Sequence record: PQ850596.1
Origin: Escherichia phage AnnaReinhart_Bas75
Strand: one strand, 5' to 3'
DNA length: 43,870 bases
Part shown: in pieces, positions 3,315 to 41,633 of the stretch
How the letters are laid out: the number at the start of each line of letters is the position of its first letter
Position numbering within the stretch: the first letter of the stretch is position 1
The notes under the pieces: generated by a model
The model's database searches: none
Told to the model about the DNA's origin: nothing
Seen by the model: the letters and a program-made list of their open reading frames with translations, nothing else
Made by a program: the position numbers and the translations under genes

Positions 3315-3335
3315 AGCCCCGAAAGGGGCTTTCTT
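3315..3335 (+). terminator. hairpin AGCCCC-gaaa-GGGGCT followed by TTCTT; intra-operon attenuator or processing hairpin after the portal gene
   Basis: Perfect 6-bp GC-rich stem with GAAA tetraloop and short T-tract, seen directly in sequence. Confidence 0.45.
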
Positions 3336-3340
3336 ATAGT

Positions 3341-4417
3341 ATGCTATTAACTTTAGCGCCACAGGGTTTATCTATGAGCTTACTTACATCCCTAATCAGC
3401 CATCAGATATGGCTGCAACGCACCGCATCCGGTGAGGTGAAAGACCTCACGCCGTTCATTCAGGAGATAAGGGATGAAATCAAACGGCAGGTGCTGTTAT
3501 TCGGTGACGACGGTCGCAGCACTGCGCGACTGAATAAACTGTTACGCGACCTGGAAGAAGCACTAACCGGTATTACGGGTGACTGGCAAACAAAGCTAAC
3601 AGACGACCTTAAGGAACTGGCGGCGTACGAGGCTGAGTGGAACGTAAAGACACTGACCGCCAACGTAGACGCGGAATTTGTTACGCCTACCGCTGAGCAG
3701 GTATGGGCCGCTGCCGAGTTTCAACCATTATCATTGAGCGACAAGCCCGTTGATTTCACCAAGCTGATGTCTGGATGGGGCGAAACGGAAGTAGCACGTC
3801 TTGTAACTGGAGTTAAGATGGGCTTTGTGCAAGGTCAAACCACACGGCAGATTGTTAAGAATGTTGTTGGCGCTGGTGGACTAGCCGACATCTCAGAACG
3901 TAACGCGACTACGGTAATCCGCACCGCGCTGTCCCACGTATCCAACGAGGCCCGTAACGAGACGTACCGCCAGAACGACGACATCATCGAGAAGTACGAG
4001 TGGGTGTCAACGCTTGACAGCCGCACCAGTACGATTTGCAGGGTCAGAGACGGGATGACGTGGGAAATTGGTAAGGGGCCGATGCCCCCAGCCCATCCGA
4101 ACTGCCGGTCGTGCACGGCTCCGGTAATCAGTTCCGAGTTCGACTTCCTCGATAAAGGCGCAAAACGCGCGGCTAAAGGCGCGGAAGGTGGCACTCAGGT
4201 AAGCGCAGACACCACTTACTACGAGTTCCTTAAACAACAACCGGCGTGGTTTCAGGACCAGGCGCTCGGCCCGGTGCGAGGTAAGATTTTCCGTAACAGC
4301 GGTATATCGCCGGAAGAGTTTCGCGTAATATCTGTAGATGGTTTCGGGAATCCGCTCACGCTTAAGCAGATGGCGGAACTCGATAAACGTGTTGCTGATT
4401 ATCTGAAAGGGGAATAA
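3341..4417 (+). CDS. head morphogenesis / minor capsid protein (Mu gpF / SPP1 gp7-like)
   Basis: 358-aa ORF following portal, the conserved position of F-like head morphogenesis proteins; alternative start at ATG 3374. Family assignment from position and general sequence character only. Confidence 0.55.
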   Translation: MLLTLAPQGLSMSLLTSLISHQIWLQRTASGEVKDLTPFIQEIRDEIKRQVLLFGDDGRSTARLNKLLRDLEEALTGITGDWQTKLTDDLKELAAYEAEWNVKTLTANVDAEFVTPTAEQVWAAAEFQPLSLSDKPVDFTKLMSGWGETEVARLVTGVKMGFVQGQTTRQIVKNVVGAGGLADISERNATTVIRTALSHVSNEARNETYRQNDDIIEKYEWVSTLDSRTSTICRVRDGMTWEIGKGPMPPAHPNCRSCTAPVISSEFDFLDKGAKRAAKGAEGGTQVSADTTYYEFLKQQPAWFQDQALGPVRGKIFRNSGISPEEFRVISVDGFGNPLTLKQMAELDKRVADYLKGE

Positions 4418-5111: not shown

Positions 5112-5138
5112 TTTTCACCTCCTGTTTAAGTTAACTGA

Positions 5139-5167
5139 ATAGTACCCTATTATATTGGGGTGTGCAA
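5139..5167 (-). promoter_or_regulatory. sigma70-like promoter TTGCAC-N17-TACTAT containing palindrome AATAG-N4-CTATT
   Basis: Read on minus strand: TTGCAC accccaatataataggg TACTAT, then AGGAGG RBS and ATG of 4908..5111. Near-identical to sites at 14262, 37025 and 38441. Confidence 0.6.
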
Positions 5168-5442
5168 ACTATTTATTTACGTATTCCAGTTATTCCACCG
5201 AATTGTAAATGTTGGAATAAACTATTCGAATAGTTGACTTTTCACTAAAAATATGATAAGCTCCACCTGAGCTTGTGAAATATGAACAAGCGACCGCGGC
5301 GCGGGCAGGTAACGGAGCGGGACGTAAGTCCTGAGTGTAGTTACGCTGACGCGTTCGGAAGGGCCATACTCTATTGCTTGTGTAAAAAGTAACAGGTTTA
5401 CTGAGATTACGCCGTTTCTATGTTTAAATGATAAGGACTAGC

Positions 5443-14233: not shown

Positions 14234-14261
14234 AATTATTTCCTCAGTAAGTTACATGTGA

Positions 14262-14290
14262 ATAGTACCCTATTATATTGGGGTGTGCAA
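14262..14290 (-). promoter_or_regulatory. sigma70-like promoter TTGCAC-N17-TACTAT with AATAG-N4-CTATT palindrome
   Basis: Identical 29-bp core to 5139..5167; drives minus-strand cassette 14233..12484. Confidence 0.6.
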
Positions 14291-15176: not shown

Positions 15177-17481
15177 TACGGCTTCCCTAATTGCCAGAGT
15201 AAAAACAGAAGGCGCTGATGTAGCCGCTAAACAGCTTGACGCTATGGCGGCATCCGCAGACCGTGCGGACACATCCGTAAACAAACTAACGCCGGATGTT
15301 AATAAAGTAAACTCCGCTACGTCTAAAGCGGCTTCTGACGGTTTCGCTAAATTCCGTAACGCCGCCGGGCAGGTAGGCTTCCAGGTGCAGGACATGGTCG
15401 TCCAGTTGCAGTCCGGCACGTCTGCATTCGTAGCAATCGGGCAACAAGGCTCTCAGCTTGCGGGTGCTTTCGGCCCTGGTGGTGCGGTGCTTGGGGCTGT
15501 AATTGCTCTTGCGTCAGCTATCGGTGGCGTCTTGTACAAATCGCTAACAGAGGCGGAGGGGAGTTCAAAAGACCTCGAAGCCGCGCAGAAACAGTTAAAA
15601 GACACCTTCCAGCAAACAGCATCCGGCTCTCTCGAACTGACAGACGGCCTTATCCAGCTTACCCAAATCAGCCGAGAAGCGGCGGAGACTCAGCTCGCTC
15701 TGGCTAAGGCTAACGCAGACCTTATCGCGCAGCAAACAGCTAAAGCCGTTCGAGAGGACGCAGAATCATGGGAGACATGGAAAGCCTCCACAGCATCGGC
15801 TATTAGCCAGTATGATGCGCTGGTTTCTAAGGGTGCTGATGTAGGCGACACGTTAGAAAAACTCGGTGGCACTTACGAGGGTAATATCGTAGGCGTCAAC
15901 ATGCTGGCACAGAATATAGCAGAGCTTAGTAGTAAGTTCGGGGTTAACCGTGACCAGGCGCTGGAGATGATAGCGGCACAGAGCGCGTTTAATAAAGAGC
16001 CGACCGCTGAGAATGCCCGCCGCATCGCCGATGTGTTTACCGACTGGCTTGGTAACACTAAGCAGTTGAACCCGGAACTTATCCGCCTGACAGACAACGC
16101 CAACAAAAACGCCACGGCGCTGGAAAACGCAGAGAAGTCGGCAAACGCGGCGGCGGAGGCTCAAAAGAACCTCGGTCGTAACGTTAACTCAACCACGCAG
16201 AGATTCCAGGAACAGAACGAAGCTATCGTCAAGAATCAGCAAATCGCCATCTTAAGCGACCGTGAGCGTATCAGGGCACAAGCTGAACTGGATAAGCAGG
16301 CGTTCGCTAAACGTGAAGCTGTCACCAAAGAACAGATAGCCGCGTATAACGCTGCCCGTGACGCGGAAGCGCAGCAAGACATAGCTCGCATTGACAAGAC
16401 CGAGAAAGAGAAGGCAGACCGCGAGGCTAAATCGAACGAGAAACGTCTGGCGGCGCAGGCCAAACGCGAAGAAACGGCGGCGCAACGTCAGAAAAAAGCG
16501 GCGGAAGATTTCCTCGCTACTGTCGACCGAACAACCGGAGACGAAATTTCTCGCATCACGGCGGCAGAAGAGCAGAAACTGGCGAAACTTGAAGAGTTTA
16601 ACCGCGCCGGAACAATAAGCCAGCAGCAGTACGAAAACGCCAAAACGCAGATTATGCTCACCGCCGAGCAGGCCCGACAGGAAGAACTGGATAAGAAAAG
16701 AAAAGAAGCCCAGGAAAAGCAGCAGAAAGGCGACGACTTCATGGCACAGATTATGGGCCAGAACGCTACTGAGCTTGAGCTTCTCGACATCCAGGAACAG
16801 CAGAAGCTGGCGGTCGCGGATAAGTATCGAGAGCAGGGGCTTATTAACGAGGAACAGTATCAGGCGGCACTTAACGCTATAAATGAGCAGTATGCTACGA
16901 AGCGCGCCGACGCTTTAGGTAATTCTTTCGGTGACATGGCGGCTAATGCTAAAACAGCATTTGGCGAGGCGTCCACCGCGTATAAAGCGTTTGCTATCGC
17001 ACAGGCAACTATCGCCACGTACACATCGGCTATCGAGGCATATAAGTCAACGGCTGCCATCCCTGTTGTCGGCCCATTCCTGGCGCCGGTTGCTGCGGCT
17101 ACTGCCGTTGCCGCGGGGCTGGCTAATATCGCCAAAATCCGCTCGGCGCGTGAGCAGGGCGGGCAGTTATCCGCCGGGCAGGCTTCTACTATCGCAGAAC
17201 GCGGTAAACCAGAAGTTATTATGCCTGCTGGTGCATCGCGAGTACGCACTGCACAGCAGATGAAAGAAATTATGGGGCAAAACGGGTCTTCTTCCGGCCC
17301 ATCTAATGTTACCATCGTAAACAACACGAGTTCTCAAATCGGCAACGTATCCACTGAGCAAGATGATGAAGGCCGTTTGCGTATCATCATAGAAGAGCAA
17401 GTTGCTGCATCTTTGCAGAACAGCAACAGCAAGATTAGCAAGGCCCGCAAAGCCACAAGAAATGCGCCGGGGTTTAAATAA
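15169..17481 (+). CDS. tail tape measure protein
   Basis: 770 aa from ATG 15169 (ORF opens at TTG 15154); Ala/Gln/Glu-rich coiled-coil character; hydrophobic Gly/Ala-rich segment (AFGPGGAVLGAVIALASAIGG); largest gene of the tail block. Confidence 0.8.
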   Translation: MADTASLIARVKTEGADVAAKQLDAMAASADRADTSVNKLTPDVNKVNSATSKAASDGFAKFRNAAGQVGFQVQDMVVQLQSGTSAFVAIGQQGSQLAGAFGPGGAVLGAVIALASAIGGVLYKSLTEAEGSSKDLEAAQKQLKDTFQQTASGSLELTDGLIQLTQISREAAETQLALAKANADLIAQQTAKAVREDAESWETWKASTASAISQYDALVSKGADVGDTLEKLGGTYEGNIVGVNMLAQNIAELSSKFGVNRDQALEMIAAQSAFNKEPTAENARRIADVFTDWLGNTKQLNPELIRLTDNANKNATALENAEKSANAAAEAQKNLGRNVNSTTQRFQEQNEAIVKNQQIAILSDRERIRAQAELDKQAFAKREAVTKEQIAAYNAARDAEAQQDIARIDKTEKEKADREAKSNEKRLAAQAKREETAAQRQKKAAEDFLATVDRTTGDEISRITAAEEQKLAKLEEFNRAGTISQQQYENAKTQIMLTAEQARQEELDKKRKEAQEKQQKGDDFMAQIMGQNATELELLDIQEQQKLAVADKYREQGLINEEQYQAALNAINEQYATKRADALGNSFGDMAANAKTAFGEASTAYKAFAIAQATIATYTSAIEAYKSTAAIPVVGPFLAPVAAATAVAAGLANIAKIRSAREQGGQLSAGQASTIAERGKPEVIMPAGASRVRTAQQMKEIMGQNGSSSGPSNVTIVNNTSSQIGNVSTEQDDEGRLRIIIEEQVAASLQNSNSKISKARKATRNAPGFK

Positions 17482-27072: not shown

Positions 27073-27260
27073 TTCGCCACCAGCACCAGCTCTTTACGCC
27101 CGAACGCCGTAACGTTACCCGTTACATCTTCGATAACCAGTTTACCGTTCGACTCGACGAACACCATATCAACGGCAACAGGACGACGGGTCTTAACGTT
27201 GAAAATCATGTCACCCGGTACGATGTCACGTGCTGGTTTGCGGTCGTATTCGTGTTTCAT
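27069..27260 (-). CDS. hypothetical protein (63 aa)
   Basis: Downstream of promoter 27295..27323; start overlaps VRR-NUC 3' end. Confidence 0.5.
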   Translation of the reverse strand: MKHEYDRKPARDIVPGDMIFNVKTRRPVAVDMVFVESNGKLVIEDVTGNVTAFGRKELVLVAK

Positions 27261-27579
27261 TTCTCAATTCCTTATATTGTTGGTGTATGTGCTTACTATA
27301 ATAGTCTGCTATTAGGGTGTCAATCTGTTTTATCGAACCAACGACAAAAACATTTGCACCACGTTTACGCATCCGCTCGTGCTCTCGTAACTGGTGCGGG
27401 TCTGGCTTCGTGTTTTCGTCTTTCTTAACCTCGACGAACCAGATGATGCCACCAGGGAGAATTACCAGCAGGTCGGGGGCGCCGGAGCGCCCCTCATAAG
27501 ACAGCTTACGAACGAGGCCACCAATGGCCTCGAATCGCTCTTTTGCGTATTTCTGCACGCGCCCCTCAGGCGTACTCAT
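27226..27579 (-). CDS. VRR-NUC domain nuclease
   Basis: 117 aa; PD-(D/E)xK-type core (GAPDLLVIL ... FVEVKK). Confidence 0.65.
   Translation of the reverse strand: MSTPEGRVQKYAKERFEAIGGLVRKLSYEGRSGAPDLLVILPGGIIWFVEVKKDENTKPDPHQLREHERMRKRGANVFVVGSIKQIDTLIADYYSKHIHQQYKELRNETRIRPQTST
27295..27323 (-). promoter_or_regulatory. sigma70 promoter TTGACA-N17-TATAGT with AATAG-N4-CTATT palindrome in spacer
   Basis: Minus strand reads TTGACA ccctaatagcagactat TATAGT; embedded in 3' coding region of VRR-NUC gene, upstream of 27069..27260. Confidence 0.55.
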
Positions 27580-30173: not shown

Positions 30174-30800
30174 TTAGCGGCGGCGACGTTCGCGGCGCGG
30201 TGCTTCATCTTCTTCGTCGTCTTCCAGGTCATTGACGCTCGCAGCGACTTTAGAACCGCCGAACGCTTTGCCTTCGCCAACGTATTTAATCGCCAGCAGG
30301 TTAACGCCGAGGACTTTGTATTTCTGGCTGAACCAGATTTCAACGCTTACGTTAGCTAAGCATCCGCTGTAAACCTGTTCACCTTCAATCTGTTCGCCGT
30401 CTACGTTGAAGTCCTGCTCTACCTGAGTCTCACCTTTTTTAGAGGTTACAATCAGCGGCTGTTTCTGTGCCTTCGCTTTGAAGTAGAAGCCTTCCGGGAA
30501 GTCTTCAAACGGATTGTCGCGCTCGGCAATGTCTTTAATCGCGCATTTATCCATGTGCTTACCTTCACCGTAGTTGGACTTCATCCATTTCTCGGCAGCG
30601 GCTGCGCCTAACGCTTCTTCAACTACAGCGTAAACGGTGTCGTAGAGTGCATCGATTTGAGCATGGTCAGACGGCAGGATGATAGTCGCGCTGTACTGGC
30701 CTTTAGTGATTGAGCCATCATCGTTTTCACGGTCTTTTTCACGTTCAAATACGTTAACCCAAGCAGTGTTTACTTTACGCAGATTCAGTTTAATACCCAT
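30174..30800 (-). CDS. putative ssDNA-binding protein (function tentative)
   Basis: 208 aa; C-terminal acidic stretch DLEDDEEDEA then Arg-rich tail; own strong promoter and terminator suggest high expression. Confidence 0.4.
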   Translation of the reverse strand: MGIKLNLRKVNTAWVNVFEREKDRENDDGSITKGQYSATIILPSDHAQIDALYDTVYAVVEEALGAAAAEKWMKSNYGEGKHMDKCAIKDIAERDNPFEDFPEGFYFKAKAQKQPLIVTSKKGETQVEQDFNVDGEQIEGEQVYSGCLANVSVEIWFSQKYKVLGVNLLAIKYVGEGKAFGGSKVAASVNDLEDDEEDEAPRRERRRR

Positions 30801-30859
30801 CTTAATTTCTCGCTTTTAAGTTTCGTTTACTCCGGGAAGCTGCCCGGTCAGTGATTAGA

Positions 30860-30888
30860 ACTATAATAGCTAACTATTCAGGTGTCAA
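30860..30888 (-). promoter_or_regulatory. sigma70 promoter TTGACA-N17-TATAGT with AATAG-N4-CTATT palindrome
   Basis: Minus strand reads TTGACA cctgaatagttagctat TATAGT; upstream of 30174..30800. Confidence 0.6.
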
Positions 30889-32627: not shown

Positions 32628-33128
32628 TTATTCTTCTTCGAAATACTTGTTCTTGATTGCTGTCAAGCGTTCCAGGTATTCAGCCAGGTCTTCGTCTTTA
32701 ATCGCTGCAATCTTCATTTTCTTACCTGTGAACTCTTCCAGCAGTTCATCAGAATCATCGCACGCGGCATCGCTCGGACCTTCGTTAATTGCATCGTCGA
32801 TAGCCTGAATCTGGTCGCGCAGAGACTTATAGTCTACTTCTTCTTTCTCTTCTTCCGGCTCTGGCGTCGTTTCCTCTACTTTAGCTTTACGCGGCTTGCG
32901 TTTTGGCTTCTCTTCTTCTGCCGGTTTAGTGTCAACGATGTCTTCACCTTCTACCGGGATTTCTTTTGTTGCTTCTTCAGCGCACTCAGCTACCGCTTCT
33001 TTGGTGTACGATACCGTCTCTACTTCCAGCGGCGTGGCAACCTGAACAACTTGTTTCGCACTGTTCGCGGCAATCAGTTCGTGCGCAACTACGAAACGTT
33101 CCAGTAATACTAAGAATTTCTCTAACAT
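32628..33128 (-). CDS. hypothetical highly acidic protein (166 aa)
   Basis: Glu/Asp-rich with a central Lys/Arg patch; good RBS GGAGAATAAATAATG. Confidence 0.5.
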   Translation of the reverse strand: MLEKFLVLLERFVVAHELIAANSAKQVVQVATPLEVETVSYTKEAVAECAEEATKEIPVEGEDIVDTKPAEEEKPKRKPRKAKVEETTPEPEEEKEEVDYKSLRDQIQAIDDAINEGPSDAACDDSDELLEEFTGKKMKIAAIKDEDLAEYLERLTAIKNKYFEEE

Positions 33129-33152: not shown

Positions 33153-33317
33153 CTACTCGCCGTCGCCTTCTGTAAGGCTATCGTCTATTAATTCAAATTT
33201 ACCGTTTGGGTGTTGAATAGCTTCTTGCCCGCAATGGTCGCAGACAACAAGTTTATCGAACCCATCAAACTCATCCCCTACTACGCAAGAAAGTACAAAT
33301 TTATGTTTTGTGCACAC
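33153..33317 (-). CDS. hypothetical small Cys-rich protein (start uncertain)
   Basis: Protein-like frame with paired Cys (SCVVG ... VCDHCG) downstream of promoter 33409..33437; only GTG at 33317 found as start and the frame stays open upstream. Confidence 0.3.
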   Translation of the reverse strand: MCTKHKFVLSCVVGDEFDGFDKLVVCDHCGQEAIQHPNGKFELIDDSLTEGDGE

Positions 33318-33408
33318 TTCTTGCGGAGCGCCGAAAATTGCTCGAAAACCTTTAGCTATGGCCCCAGTGATTGTGTTCTTATCTGCCCCTCTCGTTTGGT
33401 ATGGGCTA

Positions 33409-33437
33409 ACTATAATAGCGAACTATTCACATGTCAA
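33409..33437 (-). promoter_or_regulatory. sigma70 promoter TTGACA-N17-TATAGT with AATAG-N4-CTATT palindrome
   Basis: Minus strand reads TTGACA tgtgaatagttcgctat TATAGT; followed by conserved AAACGAGAGG leader. Confidence 0.6.
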
Positions 33438-33457: not shown

Positions 33458-33471
33458 AATATGGTACTATT
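33458..33471 (+). promoter_or_regulatory. second palindromic box (AATAT-ggta-CTATT) in divergent control region before the XRE gene
   Basis: Imperfect copy of the AATAG-N4-CTATT box 44 bp from the first; overlaps TACTAT that may be the -10 of the plus-strand promoter. Confidence 0.4.
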
Positions 33472-33501: not shown

Positions 33502-33717
33502 ATGCAACCATCTGAACTAGGCATCCGTGTAGAACAACGCCGCAAAGAACTCGGCATCTCCCAGCGCCGTCTGGCGGTCCTGGCTGGCGTTTCCCAGGGC
33601 GCGATTAACCAGCTTGCGCTCGGGGTAACTCAGGACGTCCGGCCGGCGACGCTGTTCAAGCTGGCGGAAGTGCTACAAGTAGACGCCAAGTGGCTGGCGT
33701 TAGGTGAAGGGGCTTAA
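33502..33717 (+). CDS. XRE-family (Cro/CI-type) HTH transcriptional regulator
   Basis: 71 aa; classic HTH_3 signature LGISQRRLAVLAGVSQGAINQLALG; AAGGAG RBS; only plus-strand gene inside the minus-strand replication module. Confidence 0.8.
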   Translation: MQPSELGIRVEQRRKELGISQRRLAVLAGVSQGAINQLALGVTQDVRPATLFKLAEVLQVDAKWLALGEGA

Positions 33718-33732
33718 AGCCCCTTTCTTTTT
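33707..33732 (+). terminator. rho-independent terminator AAGGGGC-ttaaa-GCCCCTT followed by TCTTTTT
   Basis: Hairpin overlaps the stop codon of the XRE gene; strong T-tract. Confidence 0.65.
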
Positions 33733-36136: not shown

Positions 36137-36427
36137 TTACCGTTTAGCCAACCCTTCCAGCAAATTTTTATACTCTTCAAAATATTCCTCGACCAAATCA
36201 TCGCCGAAATAGAAGTCGATATACTCGAGATTATCTCTTACGTTAAGCGATGCCGACATGGTGCTTAGTTGGCGTAAGCTAATTAGCTTCATTTCTGTTT
36301 CTACGCAGAAAGGCCGGTAGGTATCAAGATGGCAAGAGATATTGAAGCATAAAGCGAACTCTCCGGCCACGGAGTGAACCATATACACTTCGTTTTCTGC
36401 TTTATTGTGGAAAATTACGCCTTTCAT
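36137..36427 (-). CDS. hypothetical protein (96 aa)
   Basis: Start overlaps stop of upstream HTH gene; acidic C-terminus. Confidence 0.5.
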   Translation of the reverse strand: MKGVIFHNKAENEVYMVHSVAGEFALCFNISCHLDTYRPFCVETEMKLISLRQLSTMSASLNVRDNLEYIDFYFGDDLVEEYFEEYKNLLEGLAKR

Positions 36428-36606
36428 TTCACGTTCTCCTTAATCCATGCTTCGACTTTATTACGGTCAAATGTTCCCGGTAAACGGCGGCCCATAACCT
36501 TAATACAGCAGTCAGGGAATTTGCCGCTGCGCAACCAGTTATTAATCGTCTGACGTGTCACCCCGATACGTTCAGCTACTTCATTCTGCGTCATATAATG
36601 CGACAT
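36424..36606 (-). CDS. AlpA/excisionase-type HTH DNA-binding protein
   Basis: 60 aa from ATG 36606 (CAGGAGATATAAAAATG); motif TQNEVAERIGVTRQTINNWLRSGKFP. ORF-track version extends to 36720 but lacks RBS. Confidence 0.6.
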   Translation of the reverse strand: MSHYMTQNEVAERIGVTRQTINNWLRSGKFPDCCIKVMGRRLPGTFDRNKVEAWIKENVK

Positions 36607-36703
36607 TTTTATATCTCCTGTTTGTTTGGTGAAACTGAGTATAGGATAGCGGGAATGTAAAAGCAACCAATCTCTGTAATATTTAATCTTTACAAAAATG
36701 TTA

Positions 36704-36733
36704 TTGAAAGTTCTTGACACATGTTTGTATAAT
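36704..36733 (+). promoter_or_regulatory. candidate sigma70 promoter TTGAAA-N18-TATAAT
   Basis: Good -35/-10 with 18-bp spacer; no protein-coding gene follows for about 350 bp. Confidence 0.4.
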
Positions 36734-36757
36734 GGTTTTGGGACTTGTATATATTAC

Positions 36758-36795
36758 GGAGTTGACGAACCCTCCCCGAGGGATTCGTCAACTCC
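36758..36795 (+). other. long inverted repeat / RNA hairpin (17 bp stem with one bulge, CCC loop)
   Basis: GGAGTTGACGAA-CCCTC ccc GAGGG-a-TTCGTCAACTCC read directly from sequence. Confidence 0.6.
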
Positions 36796-36932
36796 TCCCA
36801 GACAGCTGAGATGCTTGCCTTGGGGTTTAAGGATAAGTGTATCTAAATCTCATTTAAAGAAGTAACCCGCTGAAATATCTACTGTTTCTTAATGTGCCGT
36901 AGATTCGCAACCGTAAAAATGTAACGATTATT

Positions 36933-36955
36933 GGGCAGGCTTAAGCCTGCCCTTT
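36933..36955 (+). terminator. hairpin GGGCAGGC-ttaa-GCCTGCCC followed by TTTAGTT
   Basis: Perfect 8-bp stem, plus-strand orientation, in a non-coding region. Confidence 0.5.
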
Positions 36956-37024: not shown

Positions 37025-37053
37025 TTGCACACCCCAATATAATAGGATACTAT
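37025..37053 (+). promoter_or_regulatory. sigma70-like promoter TTGCAC-N17-TACTAT with AATAG-N4-CTATT palindrome
   Basis: Near-identical to 5139 and 14262 copies; followed by CGAAACGAGA leader, AGAGGAG RBS and ATG 37088. Confidence 0.6.
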
Positions 37054-37087
37054 TCACTTATCGAAACGAGACAGAGGAGTGGTGGTT

Positions 37088-38440: not shown

Positions 38441-38469
38441 TTGCACACTAAGATAGAATAGGCTACTAT
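38441..38469 (+). promoter_or_regulatory. sigma70-like promoter TTGCAC-N17-TACTAT with AATAG-N4-CTATT palindrome
   Basis: TTGCAC actaagatagaataggc TACTAT; followed by ACAAACGAGAGGAG leader and ATG 38501. Confidence 0.6.
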
Positions 38470-38500
38470 TCATTTACACAAACGAGAGGAGAGACGGAAG

Positions 38501-41583: not shown

Positions 41584-41604
41584 TCTATTTTCTGCAATGA
41601 CTAG

Positions 41605-41633
41605 TTGACTATTACCTACGACCCTATTATATT
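41605..41633 (+). promoter_or_regulatory. sigma70-like promoter TTGACT-N17-TATATT
   Basis: Followed by CGACAACGAGAACGGAG leader similar to those after promoters 37025 and 38441. Confidence 0.5.

Follow-up and report, generated by a model that had tools for sequence, protein, structure and literature searches.

Three sigma-70-like promoters of phage replication genes share a palindrome that may be the operator of a 434 Cro-like repressor

How is transcription of the replication genes of Escherichia phage AnnaReinhart_Bas75 controlled, and what role does a palindrome that recurs at their predicted promoters play? The window analysed here is the whole stretch of 43,870 nucleotides (PQ850596.1), a complete Kagunavirus-like genome (Guernseyvirinae) from a phage group that is, to our knowledge, regarded as virulent. 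Its minus-strand replication genes encode a DUF2800/PD-(D/E)XK exonuclease, an Enc34-type ssDNA-binding protein, a family A DNA polymerase, a VRR-NUC protein, a C5 methylase and an SNF2 helicase.

Predicted promoters facing the replication genes

An earlier note on this DNA had described three minus-strand TTGACA-N17-TATAGT sites serving replication genes, and an exact search confirmed where they lie: the pattern has exactly three matches in the window, all on the minus strand, and 0 of 100 dinucleotide-preserving shuffles gave any.

27295..27323, minus strand: predicted promoter P27, TTGACACCCTAATAGCAGACTATTATAGT, inside the C-terminal tail of the VRR-NUC ORF
30860..30888, minus strand: predicted promoter P30, TTGACACCTGAATAGTTAGCTATTATAGT, 60 nt upstream of the ssDNA-binding protein gene
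33409..33437, minus strand: predicted promoter P33, TTGACATGTGAATAGTTCGCTATTATAGT, divergent from an HTH gene

The genes downstream bear out the assignment to replication. From P27 it is 35 nt to the start codon (ATG at 27260) of a gene for 63 aa, and beyond that gene come those for the C5 methylase and the SNF2 helicase; P30 is followed by the ssDNA-binding protein gene (30174-30800) and then the DNA polymerase gene; P33 stands at the head of a leftward unit that comprises small ORFs and the genes for a 166-aa protein and the DUF2800 exonuclease. The end of the -10 hexamer is 35, 60 and 92 nt from the next minus-strand start codon, respectively, and the orientation is that of the replication genes. 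The earlier note had also placed P27 within the 3' coding region of the VRR-NUC gene, which holds with the caveat that only the last codons of that gene are involved: the ORF (27226-27579) has 117 codons, P27 occupies codons ~86-95, past the Pfam domain match (residues 15-81), and in many relatives the VRR-NUC stop codon directly follows the P27 -10.

Each of the three sites matches the sigma-70 consensus at 11 of 12 hexamer positions with a 17-bp spacer, so that an activator should be unnecessary. Two features of a sigma-70 promoter are present, namely hexamers spaced 16-18 bp apart and a suitable place and direction ahead of a gene that has a ribosome-binding site, and we infer that P27, P30 and P33 are sigma-70 (RpoD) promoters. 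Because promoter-likeness in the window is overall not above chance (a generic consensus scan returned 25 sites against 22.2 by chance), the signal resides in the identity of the three 11/12 sites together with their palindrome. The sites are alike at 21 of 29 positions, comprising the -35, both palindrome half-sites and the -10, and differ in the 4 nt after the -35, in the central N4 and in all flanks, a pattern expected of selection on function and not of duplication.

The P30 fragment was found in 414 phage records. In the Jerseyvirus Salmonella phage vB_SenS_AG11 (JX297445), the P27 and P30 orthologues are annotated 'similar to consensus RpoD promoter', with TATATT as the -10 and TTGATA as one of the -35 hexamers, and the P27 orthologue again lies inside the VRR-NUC homologue (AG11_35). 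That annotation gives the hexamers only; it mentions neither the palindrome nor a link to the adjacent 'DNA-binding protein' AG11_42.

A palindrome held in several registers

AATAG-N4-CTATT is by far the commonest gapped palindrome of the window, with 7 occurrences against 0.06 expected. Allowing one mismatch yields 12 palindromes (0.9 expected), and three of the five extras fall on promoter-like sites. Taking TATAGT as -12..-7, the palindrome occupies -25..-12 in all three promoters:

27300..27313, unstranded: palindrome (candidate operator) of P27, AATAGTCTGCTATT, -25..-12
30865..30878, unstranded: palindrome (candidate operator) of P30, AATAGCTAACTATT, -25..-12
33414..33427, unstranded: palindrome O1 (candidate operator) of P33, AATAGCGAACTATT, -25..-12

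The earlier note had put AATAG-N4-CTATT in the spacer of each site, abutting the -10. Its presence at all three stands, but instead of only abutting, palindrome and -10 overlap by one base, a T that ends the former and begins the latter. The remaining perfect copies lie at -19..-6 of four promoters with other hexamers, TTGCAC-N17-TACTAT, and near-palindromes mark two sites of a possible third architecture:

37025..37053, plus strand: TTGCAC-N17-TACTAT promoter heading rightward small early genes; palindrome 37041-37054, -19..-6
38441..38469, plus strand: TTGCAC-N17-TACTAT promoter; palindrome 38457-38470
14262..14290, minus strand: TTGCAC-N17-TACTAT promoter heading the minus-strand insert 14233-12484; palindrome 14261-14274
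5139..5167, minus strand: TTGCAC-N17-TACTAT promoter heading a 67-aa minus-strand gene, 5111-4908; palindrome 5138-5151
41600..41633, plus strand: possible third architecture; near-palindrome ACTAGTTGACTATT (41600-41613, 13/14) overlapping the -35
5229..5262, plus strand: possible third architecture; near-palindrome AATAGTTGACTTTT (5229-5242, 13/14) overlapping the -35

The site at 41605-41633 reads TTGACT-N17-TATATT, comes after a terminator and stands before plus-strand genes that lead on to the terminase; its near-palindrome is conserved in Bas71 (a 94%-identical relative), K1H, Ent2 and AG11, with the lone mismatch in a different half in each genus. The site at 5234-5262 reads TTGACT-N17-TAAGCT, and in the Kagunavirus fBC-Eco01 the same promoter was predicted as host promoter HP1.

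Across promoters the palindrome therefore takes three or four different registers relative to the hexamers: -25..-12, -19..-6 in the TTGCAC-N17-TACTAT class, and about -40..-27, over the -35, in the TTGACT promoters. A fixed box in shifting registers does not belong to one polymerase-recognition pattern. Sigma-70 reads no bases in the promoter spacer. Moreover, conserved sigma-70-like promoters free of the palindrome occur at 36704-36733 in the window and at 4068 and 35540 in AG11. An RNA hairpin was rejected as a reading of the dyad: the dyad precedes the predicted start sites, and an AT-rich stem of 5 bp closing a 4-nt loop would be unstable; an Rfam scan of the whole window gave no match.

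To examine conservation, orthologous sequences from ~50 relatives were collected without reference to the motif. The half-sites barely change among them, in contrast to the central 4 bp, the -35 hexamer and the flanks, which all vary. For P27, the palindrome is intact in 24 of 27 unique orthologous sequences and has at most one mismatch in 27 of 27; the N4 takes at least 10 forms, nonsynonymous changes included, and the -35 is TTGACA in only 9 of the 27, being mostly TTGACG otherwise. In P33 orthologues the distance from the -35 to the palindrome varies by 1 bp, whereas the position of the palindrome relative to the -10 is fixed; when Kagunavirus sequences are aligned on the start codon of the HTH gene, O1 is invariant as ACTATAATAG-N4-CTATTCA. 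The Kagunavirus motif is not fully symmetric, reading TATAATAG on one side and TGAATAG on the other. These results rest on the sequences collected with the P27 anchor and on the alignment from the HTH start codon; anchors for P30 and P33 caught unintended sites, since several promoters have the AAACGAGAGG leader downstream, and a position-frequency profile was discarded as evidence, its sites having been chosen by the palindrome itself, which makes half-site scores circular. The HTH proteins of the comparative set are largely 93-100% identical, and since the set is mostly close kin, part of the invariance comes from shared ancestry.

Could the dyad be a by-product of AT-rich, -10-like hexamers on both strands, with no dedicated regulator and with conservation reflecting polymerase recognition only? 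The half-sites are indeed AT-rich and resemble -10 hexamers (TATTAT and TACTAT, with TATAAT on the opposite strand), so that recognition by polymerase on either strand could explain part of the conservation; together with their flanks they give -10-like TATAGT and TATATT on one strand and TATAAT and (T/A)ACTAT on the other. In promoters of the TTGCAC class the -10 is formed by the right half itself, and the separation of palindrome from polymerase recognition is accordingly not complete everywhere. At 14251-14290, where the strand opposite the 14262..14290 promoter reads GTTACA-N17-TATATT (14251-14279), and at Ent2 15797, both strands carry -35/-10 pairs around the dyad (TTGACG-17-TATTAA, TTGCAT-17-TATTAT). 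Divergent transcription from symmetric promoters is an established phenomenon, reportedly treated by Warman and colleagues in 2021. Against this account, the upstream half-site of P27, P30 and P33 lies in the spacer and is nearly invariant while the N4, -35 and flanks vary; the opposite strand has no acceptable -35 there, and no gene on the plus strand could use such a promoter at P27 or P30. In every register the halves remain exactly 5 bp and the gap exactly 4 bp, and the same genomes hold the conserved dyad-free promoters described above. We consider this explanation quite improbable.

The repeat has been noticed before, under another interpretation. In fBC-Eco01, PHIRE returned a 20-bp repeat, tgAATAGTa-ccTATTat-T, reported as seven phage-specific promoters, and seven PHIRE promoters are reported for Golestan as well, an agreement in count (PMC9825357, PMC7203180). 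The fBC-Eco01 list consists mostly of the TTGCAC class plus O2 (described below) and P27, lacks P30 and P33, and includes no minus-strand host-promoter reading. The paper credits the repeat to a phage-encoded RNA polymerase; such phages have none. We found no RNA polymerase gene among the ORFs of the window, where all ORFs >400 aa were assigned otherwise, or in the 82-feature annotation of Bas71, and hence no phage polymerase that could recognise the repeat as its own promoter.

A related possibility is that the box binds the Cro-like protein introduced below, or another phage factor, as an activator, or belongs to a phage-specific promoter used by a modified or phage-encoded polymerase. Besides the PHIRE reports, the weaker hexamers of the TTGCAC/TACTAT class, which might benefit from help, speak for it. 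P27, P30 and P33, with their 11/12 matches at optimal spacing, need none, and a dimer on their palindrome would have its centre near -18.5, within the 17-bp spacer that separates -35 from -10, a position for repression and not for activation. MerR-type activation requires 19-20-bp spacers; the consensus -35 and 17-bp spacer led us to reject a MotA-type or MerR-type activator. Activation or a phage polymerase thus appears very improbable.

A Cro-like gene between two copies of the palindrome

If the palindrome is an operator, which protein would bind it? The only DNA-binding proteins detected are a 71-aa HTH_3 protein, encoded beside P33, and a 98-aa HTH_17 protein.

33502..33717, plus strand: 71-aa HTH_3 (Xre/Cro-CI type) gene, candidate operator-binding repressor; recognition helix SQGAINQLALG
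33458..33471, unstranded: palindrome O2, AATATGGTACTATT, 13/14, on the presumed promoter of the HTH gene
33706..33726, plus strand: terminator-like hairpin with a T-run, directly 3' of the HTH gene
36424-36720: 98-aa HTH_17/excisionase-like protein gene (Pfam HTH_17, E 6.7e-8)

Several lines of evidence identify the 71-aa protein as a 434 Cro-like HTH protein: firstly, it matches Pfam HTH_3 (E 1.2e-12) and PHROG transcriptional repressor families; secondly, its best phmmer match in the PDB is 434 Cro (E 1.8e-6, residues 6-68); thirdly, its AF2 model has five helices (pLDDT 79), which Foldseek matches to 434 Cro (40-42% identity), SinR and P22 C2 with probability 1.00, and also to C.AhdI and C.BclI. 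The gene is present in every Kagunavirus and Jerseyvirus locus examined, although the Bas71 annotation omits it altogether. It is transcribed divergently from P33, and the hairpin at its end, whose AG11 equivalent is annotated as a terminator, separates it from a convergent primase-helicase gene. Kagunavirus RNA-seq, sorted into gene-level time classes, places an HTH-domain gene, possibly the 71-aa one, among only four early genes (PMC12645636).

The gene sits beside two copies of the palindrome, 44 bp apart centre to centre. O1 falls within P33; the other copy, O2, overlaps an extended -10, TGgTACTAT (33462-33470), which belongs to the presumed promoter of the HTH gene itself. As read from the sequence, this is the classic layout of an autoregulated gene. 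The arrangement resembles that of phage 434. Operators of 434 (3cro, 2or1) are 14 bp long, with conserved outer bases and four uncontacted central bases, and the candidate operators of this phage are likewise 14 bp, built as 5+4+5 with a variable central 4 bp and overlapping sigma-70 promoters. Both proteins are small, single-domain, five-helix HTH_3 proteins of 71 aa, 434 Cro being the best match among solved structures, and in both phages the regulator gene is divergent and has an operator, here a candidate one, at its own promoter. The first Gln of the 434 recognition helix contacts the outermost adenine; the 71-aa protein keeps this Gln, and both half-sites start with A. Three marks of a 434 Cro-type system are found here: candidate operators overlapping promoter cores, the regulator's own included; ~14-bp dyads with conserved outer half-sites and a variable centre; and a single-domain HTH_3 protein with the five-helix Cro/CI fold.

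The two systems differ in other respects. The half-site is AATAG here and ACAA(G/T) in 434; this phage has 7 perfect and ~3 imperfect candidate operators, spread genome-wide over separate promoters, whereas 434 OR/OL has three tandem sites in each of two control regions; and binding here is predicted from sequence. No CI-type maintenance repressor or CI partner and no immunity region was found in the window, and neither an integrase nor a long repressor among its ORFs or in the annotations of Bas71, K1H, Ent2 and AG11. The divergent CI-type repressor, an HTH protein with an S24 peptidase or equivalent, and the integration module that define the CI/Cro bistable switch of a lambdoid immunity region are thus lacking; the system may act like Cro, yet it is no lambdoid immunity region. 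Lambda Cro resembles the protein in its proposed role, that of a small repressor, made early, by which early and delayed-early transcription is reduced at later stages of lytic growth, but has a winged beta-rich fold, 17-bp operators and only two control regions (PL/PR), and no homology is claimed. The C proteins of restriction-modification systems share the fold, dyad binding, promoter overlap and autoregulation, and a phage C5 methylase gene lies downstream of P27; however, this methylase has no accompanying restriction endonuclease gene, and C-boxes are paired dyads at a single promoter rather than copies spread over a genome.

A different protein might occupy a real box on real sigma-70 promoters: the 98-aa HTH_17 protein, a small early phage protein or a host transcription factor shared by E. 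coli and Salmonella. The HTH_17 protein, assigned to the PHROG 'excisionase and transcriptional regulator', provides a second phage DNA-binding protein and is conserved in Jerseyvirus (AG11_47). That the HTH gene and the palindrome system are conserved together across two genera, Kagunavirus and Jerseyvirus, counts for the Cro-like protein, but the Jerseyvirus AATAG core is the same despite a different recognition helix (SQSLITHLATG; HTH 49-51% identity), as would be natural for a conserved host factor or another protein. Further afield, Hafnia phage TS33 has a degraded, non-palindromic motif, AATAG-N4-GTAAT, with an HTH homologue of 34-37% identity, and in the Dhillonvirus SECphi18 the dyad is absent and the HTH query had no match; co-variation of helix and half-site, looked for across Jerseyvirus, TS33 and SECphi18, was not demonstrated. 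The homologous-protein search returned close relatives only, and distant HTH loci (L126-L128), lying in unrelated phage contexts with no common motif, were set aside. What counts against another binder is that the Cro-like gene physically sits between two copies of the box and that operators of precisely the same length and layout serve its closest relative of known structure. HTH_17/Xis-type proteins are usually monomers on direct or asymmetric sites and not on 14-bp dyads, and AATAG-N4-CTATT is not known to us as the site of any E. coli factor. We therefore regard a different binder as fairly unlikely.

The earlier note's proposal that the palindrome is a regulatory box, and not part of polymerase recognition, is strengthened by the shifting registers, the conserved spacer half-site, the palindrome-free promoters, the adjoining HTH gene and the 434-type layout, all of which point to a candidate operator.

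A proposed circuit and its implications

On balance, we lean towards a model in which P27, P30 and P33 are sigma-70 promoters repressed by a dimer of the 71-aa 434 Cro-like protein, which would also regulate its own gene. Host sigma-70 (RpoD) would start or boost leftward transcription of replication and recombination genes at the three promoters, P33 driving the exonuclease unit, P30 the ssDNA-binding protein and DNA polymerase, and P27 the methylase and helicase. At -25..-12 of each, the 14-bp operator, two 5-bp half-sites (AATAG/CTATT) around four presumably uncontacted base pairs, would most likely be bound by a dimer of the protein encoded at 33502-33717; a dimer in this position, spanning the spacer and reaching the margin of the -10, would keep RNA polymerase out. 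With rising amounts of the protein in the course of infection, the seven promoters with perfect operators would be turned down, early and replication genes alike; at higher concentration, the HTH gene's own promoter, its -10 covered by the putatively weaker operator copy O2, would be turned down as well.

A bolder version of the model, a 'Cro-only' circuit, would have one autoregulated dimer run the whole temporal programme through ~10 copies of the 14-bp operator in three or four registers. Perfect copies would control early and replication promoters, and imperfect ones the regulator's own promoter and the -35 hexamers leading into structural genes; the dyads at 5138 and 14261, within the structural-gene block, could switch inserted leftward genes to rightward late genes, and the succession of early, middle and late expression would follow from graded occupancy by a single protein. 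We offer this extension as speculation that is probably incorrect as a whole.

Operator-controlled sigma-70 promoters are textbook biology and involve no new principle. The regulator itself, however, seems not to have been pointed out before in this phage group, although the dyad may have been mentioned in the Jerseyvirinae description (Anany et al., 2015). Few phages are isolated more often than Kagunaviruses and Jerseyviruses for therapy or food biocontrol against E. coli K1 and Salmonella, and their transcription control is essentially undescribed; genome papers ascribe the repeat to a non-existent phage RNA polymerase or report no Cro-type genes. A candidate Cro-like repressor with a genome-wide set of candidate operators provides a concrete, testable model for the timing of replication-gene expression in virulent phages, and its recognition corrects published annotations, such as that of Bas71 with its missing HTH gene. 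The compact promoter-operator-repressor set could also serve phage engineering. Should the 'Cro-only' reading prove true, the Guernseyvirinae, treated as strictly virulent and without Cro/CI-type genes, would run on a Cro-like circuit.

Three probable promoters of the replication block

The window is the complete genome of a Kagunavirus-like siphophage (Guernseyvirinae; 43,870 bp), most of which consists of structural and lysis genes on the plus strand. The replication region of Bas71 is ~94% identical to it, and gene order and start point are shared.

About 36720 to 24676, minus strand: replication/recombination block, with primase-helicase, DUF2800/PD-(D/E)XK exonuclease, Enc34-type ssDNA-binding protein, family A DNA polymerase, VRR-NUC, C5 cytosine methylase and SNF2 helicase genes
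27295-27323, 30860-30888 and 33409-33437, minus strand: promoter sites P27, P30 and P33
33502-33717, plus strand: gene for a 71-aa helix-turn-helix (HTH) protein, flanked by P33 and the convergent primase-helicase gene

An exact search for TTGACA-N17-TATAGT returned P27, P30 and P33 and nothing else in the window, all on the minus strand and where an earlier note had placed them; none of 100 dinucleotide-preserving shuffles contained a match. A generic sigma-70 scan ranked the three among the four best sites of that genome half (11 of 12 positions), and revealed no overall excess of promoter-like sites (25 found, 22.2 expected). The palindrome AATAG-N4-CTATT, which the note had described at each site, indeed occupies -25 to -12 in all three, sharing its final T with the -10. 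Across the three 29-mers 21 positions are identical, namely those of the -35, the -10 and the two half-sites; N4, the four bases following the -35 and all flanks differ. This dyad is by far the most frequent gapped palindrome of the window (7 copies, 0.06 expected). We regard P27, P30 and P33 as very probable promoters.

P27 was said to lie within the 3' coding end of VRR-NUC, and it does fall in the C-terminal tail (…KQIDTLIADYYSKHIH…) of ORF 27226-27579, past the stretch that matches Pfam VRR_NUC (residues 15-81). The VRR-NUC stop, TAG, immediately follows TATAGT in many relatives, K1H among them; in the window phage it reads AAG, leaving an ORF 23 codons longer than in K1H-type relatives that therefore runs past the next gene's start codon (ATG at 27260).

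Two further observations concern the neighborhoods of P33 and P30. Downstream of P33, the first small ORF (33153-33380, minus strand) encodes a Cys-rich, zinc-ribbon-like sequence; the ATG start of close relatives is AAG here, so that an internal GTG is the sole start left (54 aa), and the small gene in this slot differs from relative to relative. Between P30 and the ssDNA-binding protein gene, the 5' leader contains a hairpin (CCGGG-CAGCTT-CCCGG, 30832-30847, minus strand) with an invariant stem and a variable loop in Kagunavirus, Jerseyvirus and Hafnia phage TS33; it may act in mRNA stability or in translational autoregulation.

Conservation and register of the palindrome

Comparison drew on genomes or 14-kb loci of about 50 relatives, aligned by flanking similarity or by the HTH start codon and hence without selection for the motif. 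In these alignments the half-sites hardly change, unlike the other elements: at P27 the dyad is intact in 24 of 27 unique sequences and has at most one mismatch in all 27, whereas the -35 is TTGACA in only nine, the rest being mostly TTGACG. The P27 N4 takes at least ten forms, altering the encoded residues (AD, AN, AS, AH, AG, EH, ER) while the half-sites stay fixed, which argues that this stretch is constrained by promoter and box rather than by protein. At P33 the distance from the -35 to the dyad varies by 1 bp and that from the dyad to the -10 is fixed. Salmonella Jerseyviruses (~75% identity in the polymerase gene) carry TAATAG-N4-CTATTA with a TATATT -10 at the orthologous promoters, and the P30 fragment recurs in 414 phage records (298 Salmonella, 99 Escherichia). 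In the more distant TS33, TTGACA-N17-TATAGT still precedes the gene for the ssDNA-binding protein, with a changed spacer, and the repeat is AATAG-N4-GTAAT; hexamers and box can thus evolve separately.

The same box is found in other positions relative to the promoter, with the asymmetric core TATAATAG-N4-CTATTCA common to all seven palindromes.

5138 and 14261, serving genes on the minus strand: TTGCAC-N17-TACTAT with dyad at -19 to -6
37041 and 38457, serving genes on the plus strand: TTGCAC-N17-TACTAT with dyad at -19 to -6
5229-5262, plus strand: promoter-like site with one-mismatch dyad 5229-5242, leading into late/structural genes
41600-41633, plus strand: TTGACT-N17-TATATT with one-mismatch dyad 41600-41613, after a terminator and heading into late genes
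33458-33471: O2, a one-mismatch dyad covering TGgTACTAT, the extended -10 before the HTH gene
36704-36733, plus strand: strong promoter-like site TTGAAA-18-TATAAT (11 of 12 positions)
36933-36952, plus strand: intrinsic terminator

In the TTGCAC class the right half of the box is the -10, and P27, P30 and P33 read through the box in the opposite direction. At 5229 and 41600 the dyad (A[AC]TAG-TTGA-CTA[TG]T) sits at about -40 to -27 with the TTGACT -35 embedded in it; the 41600 copy is kept in both Kagunavirus and Jerseyvirus, with the mismatch in opposite halves. This range of registers, together with half-sites that persist while -35 and N4 vary, supports the earlier reading of the palindrome as a regulatory box, and we judge it probable from sequence that a protein binds there.

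Alternatively, the dyad could be two opposed -10-like elements forming symmetric promoter cores with no regulator. Hexamer pairs do occur on both strands at two dyads of the TTGCAC class: GTTACA-17-TATATT on the plus strand (14251-14279) opposite the minus-strand TTGCAC-17-TACTAT, and TTGACG-17-TATTAA and TTGCAT-17-TATTAT near 15797 of Ent2. At P27, P30 and P33, however, the upstream half has neither a partner -35 nor a gene to serve, and we consider this explanation improbable. Dyads within the structural-gene block (14251-14290, 5139-5167 and Ent2 near 15797) may be back-to-back promoters; if so, a single operator could govern the inserted leftward genes as well as the restart of rightward transcription of the tail genes.

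Another one-mismatch dyad, TATAGTATGCTATT (3335-3348, plus strand), directly follows a terminator hairpin (3315-3330), and includes the ATG annotated as the head-morphogenesis gene start. Bas71 and K1H conserve this dyad, which may be fortuitous or else a weak restart promoter (TATAGT). Strong, conserved sigma-70-like promoters lacking the box also exist, at 36704-36733 and, in AG11, at 4068 and 35540. Downstream of the 36704 site come a long perfect hairpin (GGAGTTGACGAA…TTCGTCAACTCC) and, about 200 nt further on, the terminator at 36933-36952, with no convincing ORF and no Rfam match between promoter and terminator. The 36704-36955 region could encode a small RNA or leader, antisense to whatever leftward transcription reaches the HTH_17 gene (36720) from around 37041.

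A Cro-like candidate regulator

The HTH gene is the sole plus-strand gene within the replication block and was found in all Kagunavirus and Jerseyvirus loci examined. In Bas71 it is present at 32649-32861 (96% identical) and missing from the annotation, which has a short opposite-strand ORF (32664-32759) instead; the K1H, Ent2 and AG11 records label it only 'HTH' or 'DNA-binding' protein. Its product matches Pfam HTH_3 (E 1.2e-12) and PHROG repressor families. Among solved structures, phage 434 Cro, also 71 aa, matches it best (alignment over residues 6-68, E 1.8e-6), followed by 434 repressor and P22 C2. An AlphaFold2 model (five helices, pLDDT 79) retrieved SinR, 434 Cro (40-42% identity), HipB, C-proteins and P22 C2 with Foldseek.

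The operators of 434 are 14 bp long; the recognition helix touches the outer bases and leaves the four central bases uncontacted, a 5+4+5 layout that is the same as that of the dyad here. In 434 the first Gln of this helix contacts the outermost adenine; this Gln is conserved in the window phage (SQGAINQ), and both half-sites start with A. Given a box, the Cro-like protein is its likely binder on this evidence; binding by something else, whether the 98-aa HTH_17 protein (36424-36720) or a host factor, is unlikely.

In Kagunavirus O1, the dyad at P33 (33414-33427), and O2, over the HTH gene's own -10, lie 44-45 bp apart center to center; in Jerseyvirus the distance is about 55 bp (hand count from the HTH-anchored alignment). 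This 10-bp insertion is one helical turn and so preserves helical phase, which suggests that O1 and O2 must remain on the same DNA face.

Predicted repression and earlier descriptions

Everything past sequence, conservation and protein class is what we infer. P27, P30 and P33 would be host sigma-70 promoters whose operator is bound by the Cro-like protein as a dimer; the dimer would exclude RNA polymerase by lying across the spacer and -10 edge, or in the other architectures across the -10 or the -35. With perfect operators at the early and replication promoters, and imperfect ones at its own promoter and at those leading to late genes, the regulator would produce ordered turn-down and autoregulation. 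We favor this complete scheme by a narrow margin. RNA-seq of a Kagunavirus places an HTH-domain gene, not necessarily that at 33502-33717, among four early genes (PMC12645636).

Parts of this system have been described previously. The orthologues of P27 and P30 are annotated as RpoD promoters in Salmonella phage AG11 (GenBank JX297445). The fBC-Eco01 paper detected the repeat with PHIRE, named it a phage-RNAP promoter consensus and listed promoters without P30 and P33 (PMC9825357); the Golestan paper reports seven PHIRE promoters. PMC9825357 credits the repeat to a 'phage-encoded RNA polymerase', a gene absent from these phages, as judged from the window ORFs and the Bas71 annotation. Activation should hardly be needed with consensus hexamers 17 bp apart, and we consider an activator site or phage-polymerase promoter very unlikely. 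According to a Jerseyvirus genome paper (PMC5217580), Cro and CI are absent, whereas a 434 Cro-like protein is conserved in Jerseyviruses. In a search outside the original Jerseyvirinae paper, we found no source that treats the dyad as an operator or assigns its binding to the 434 Cro-like protein. Sigma-70 promoters controlled by a Cro-type repressor and its operators are a known kind of system; what would be unusual here is mainly an operator set that spans the entire genome of a virulent phage in several registers.
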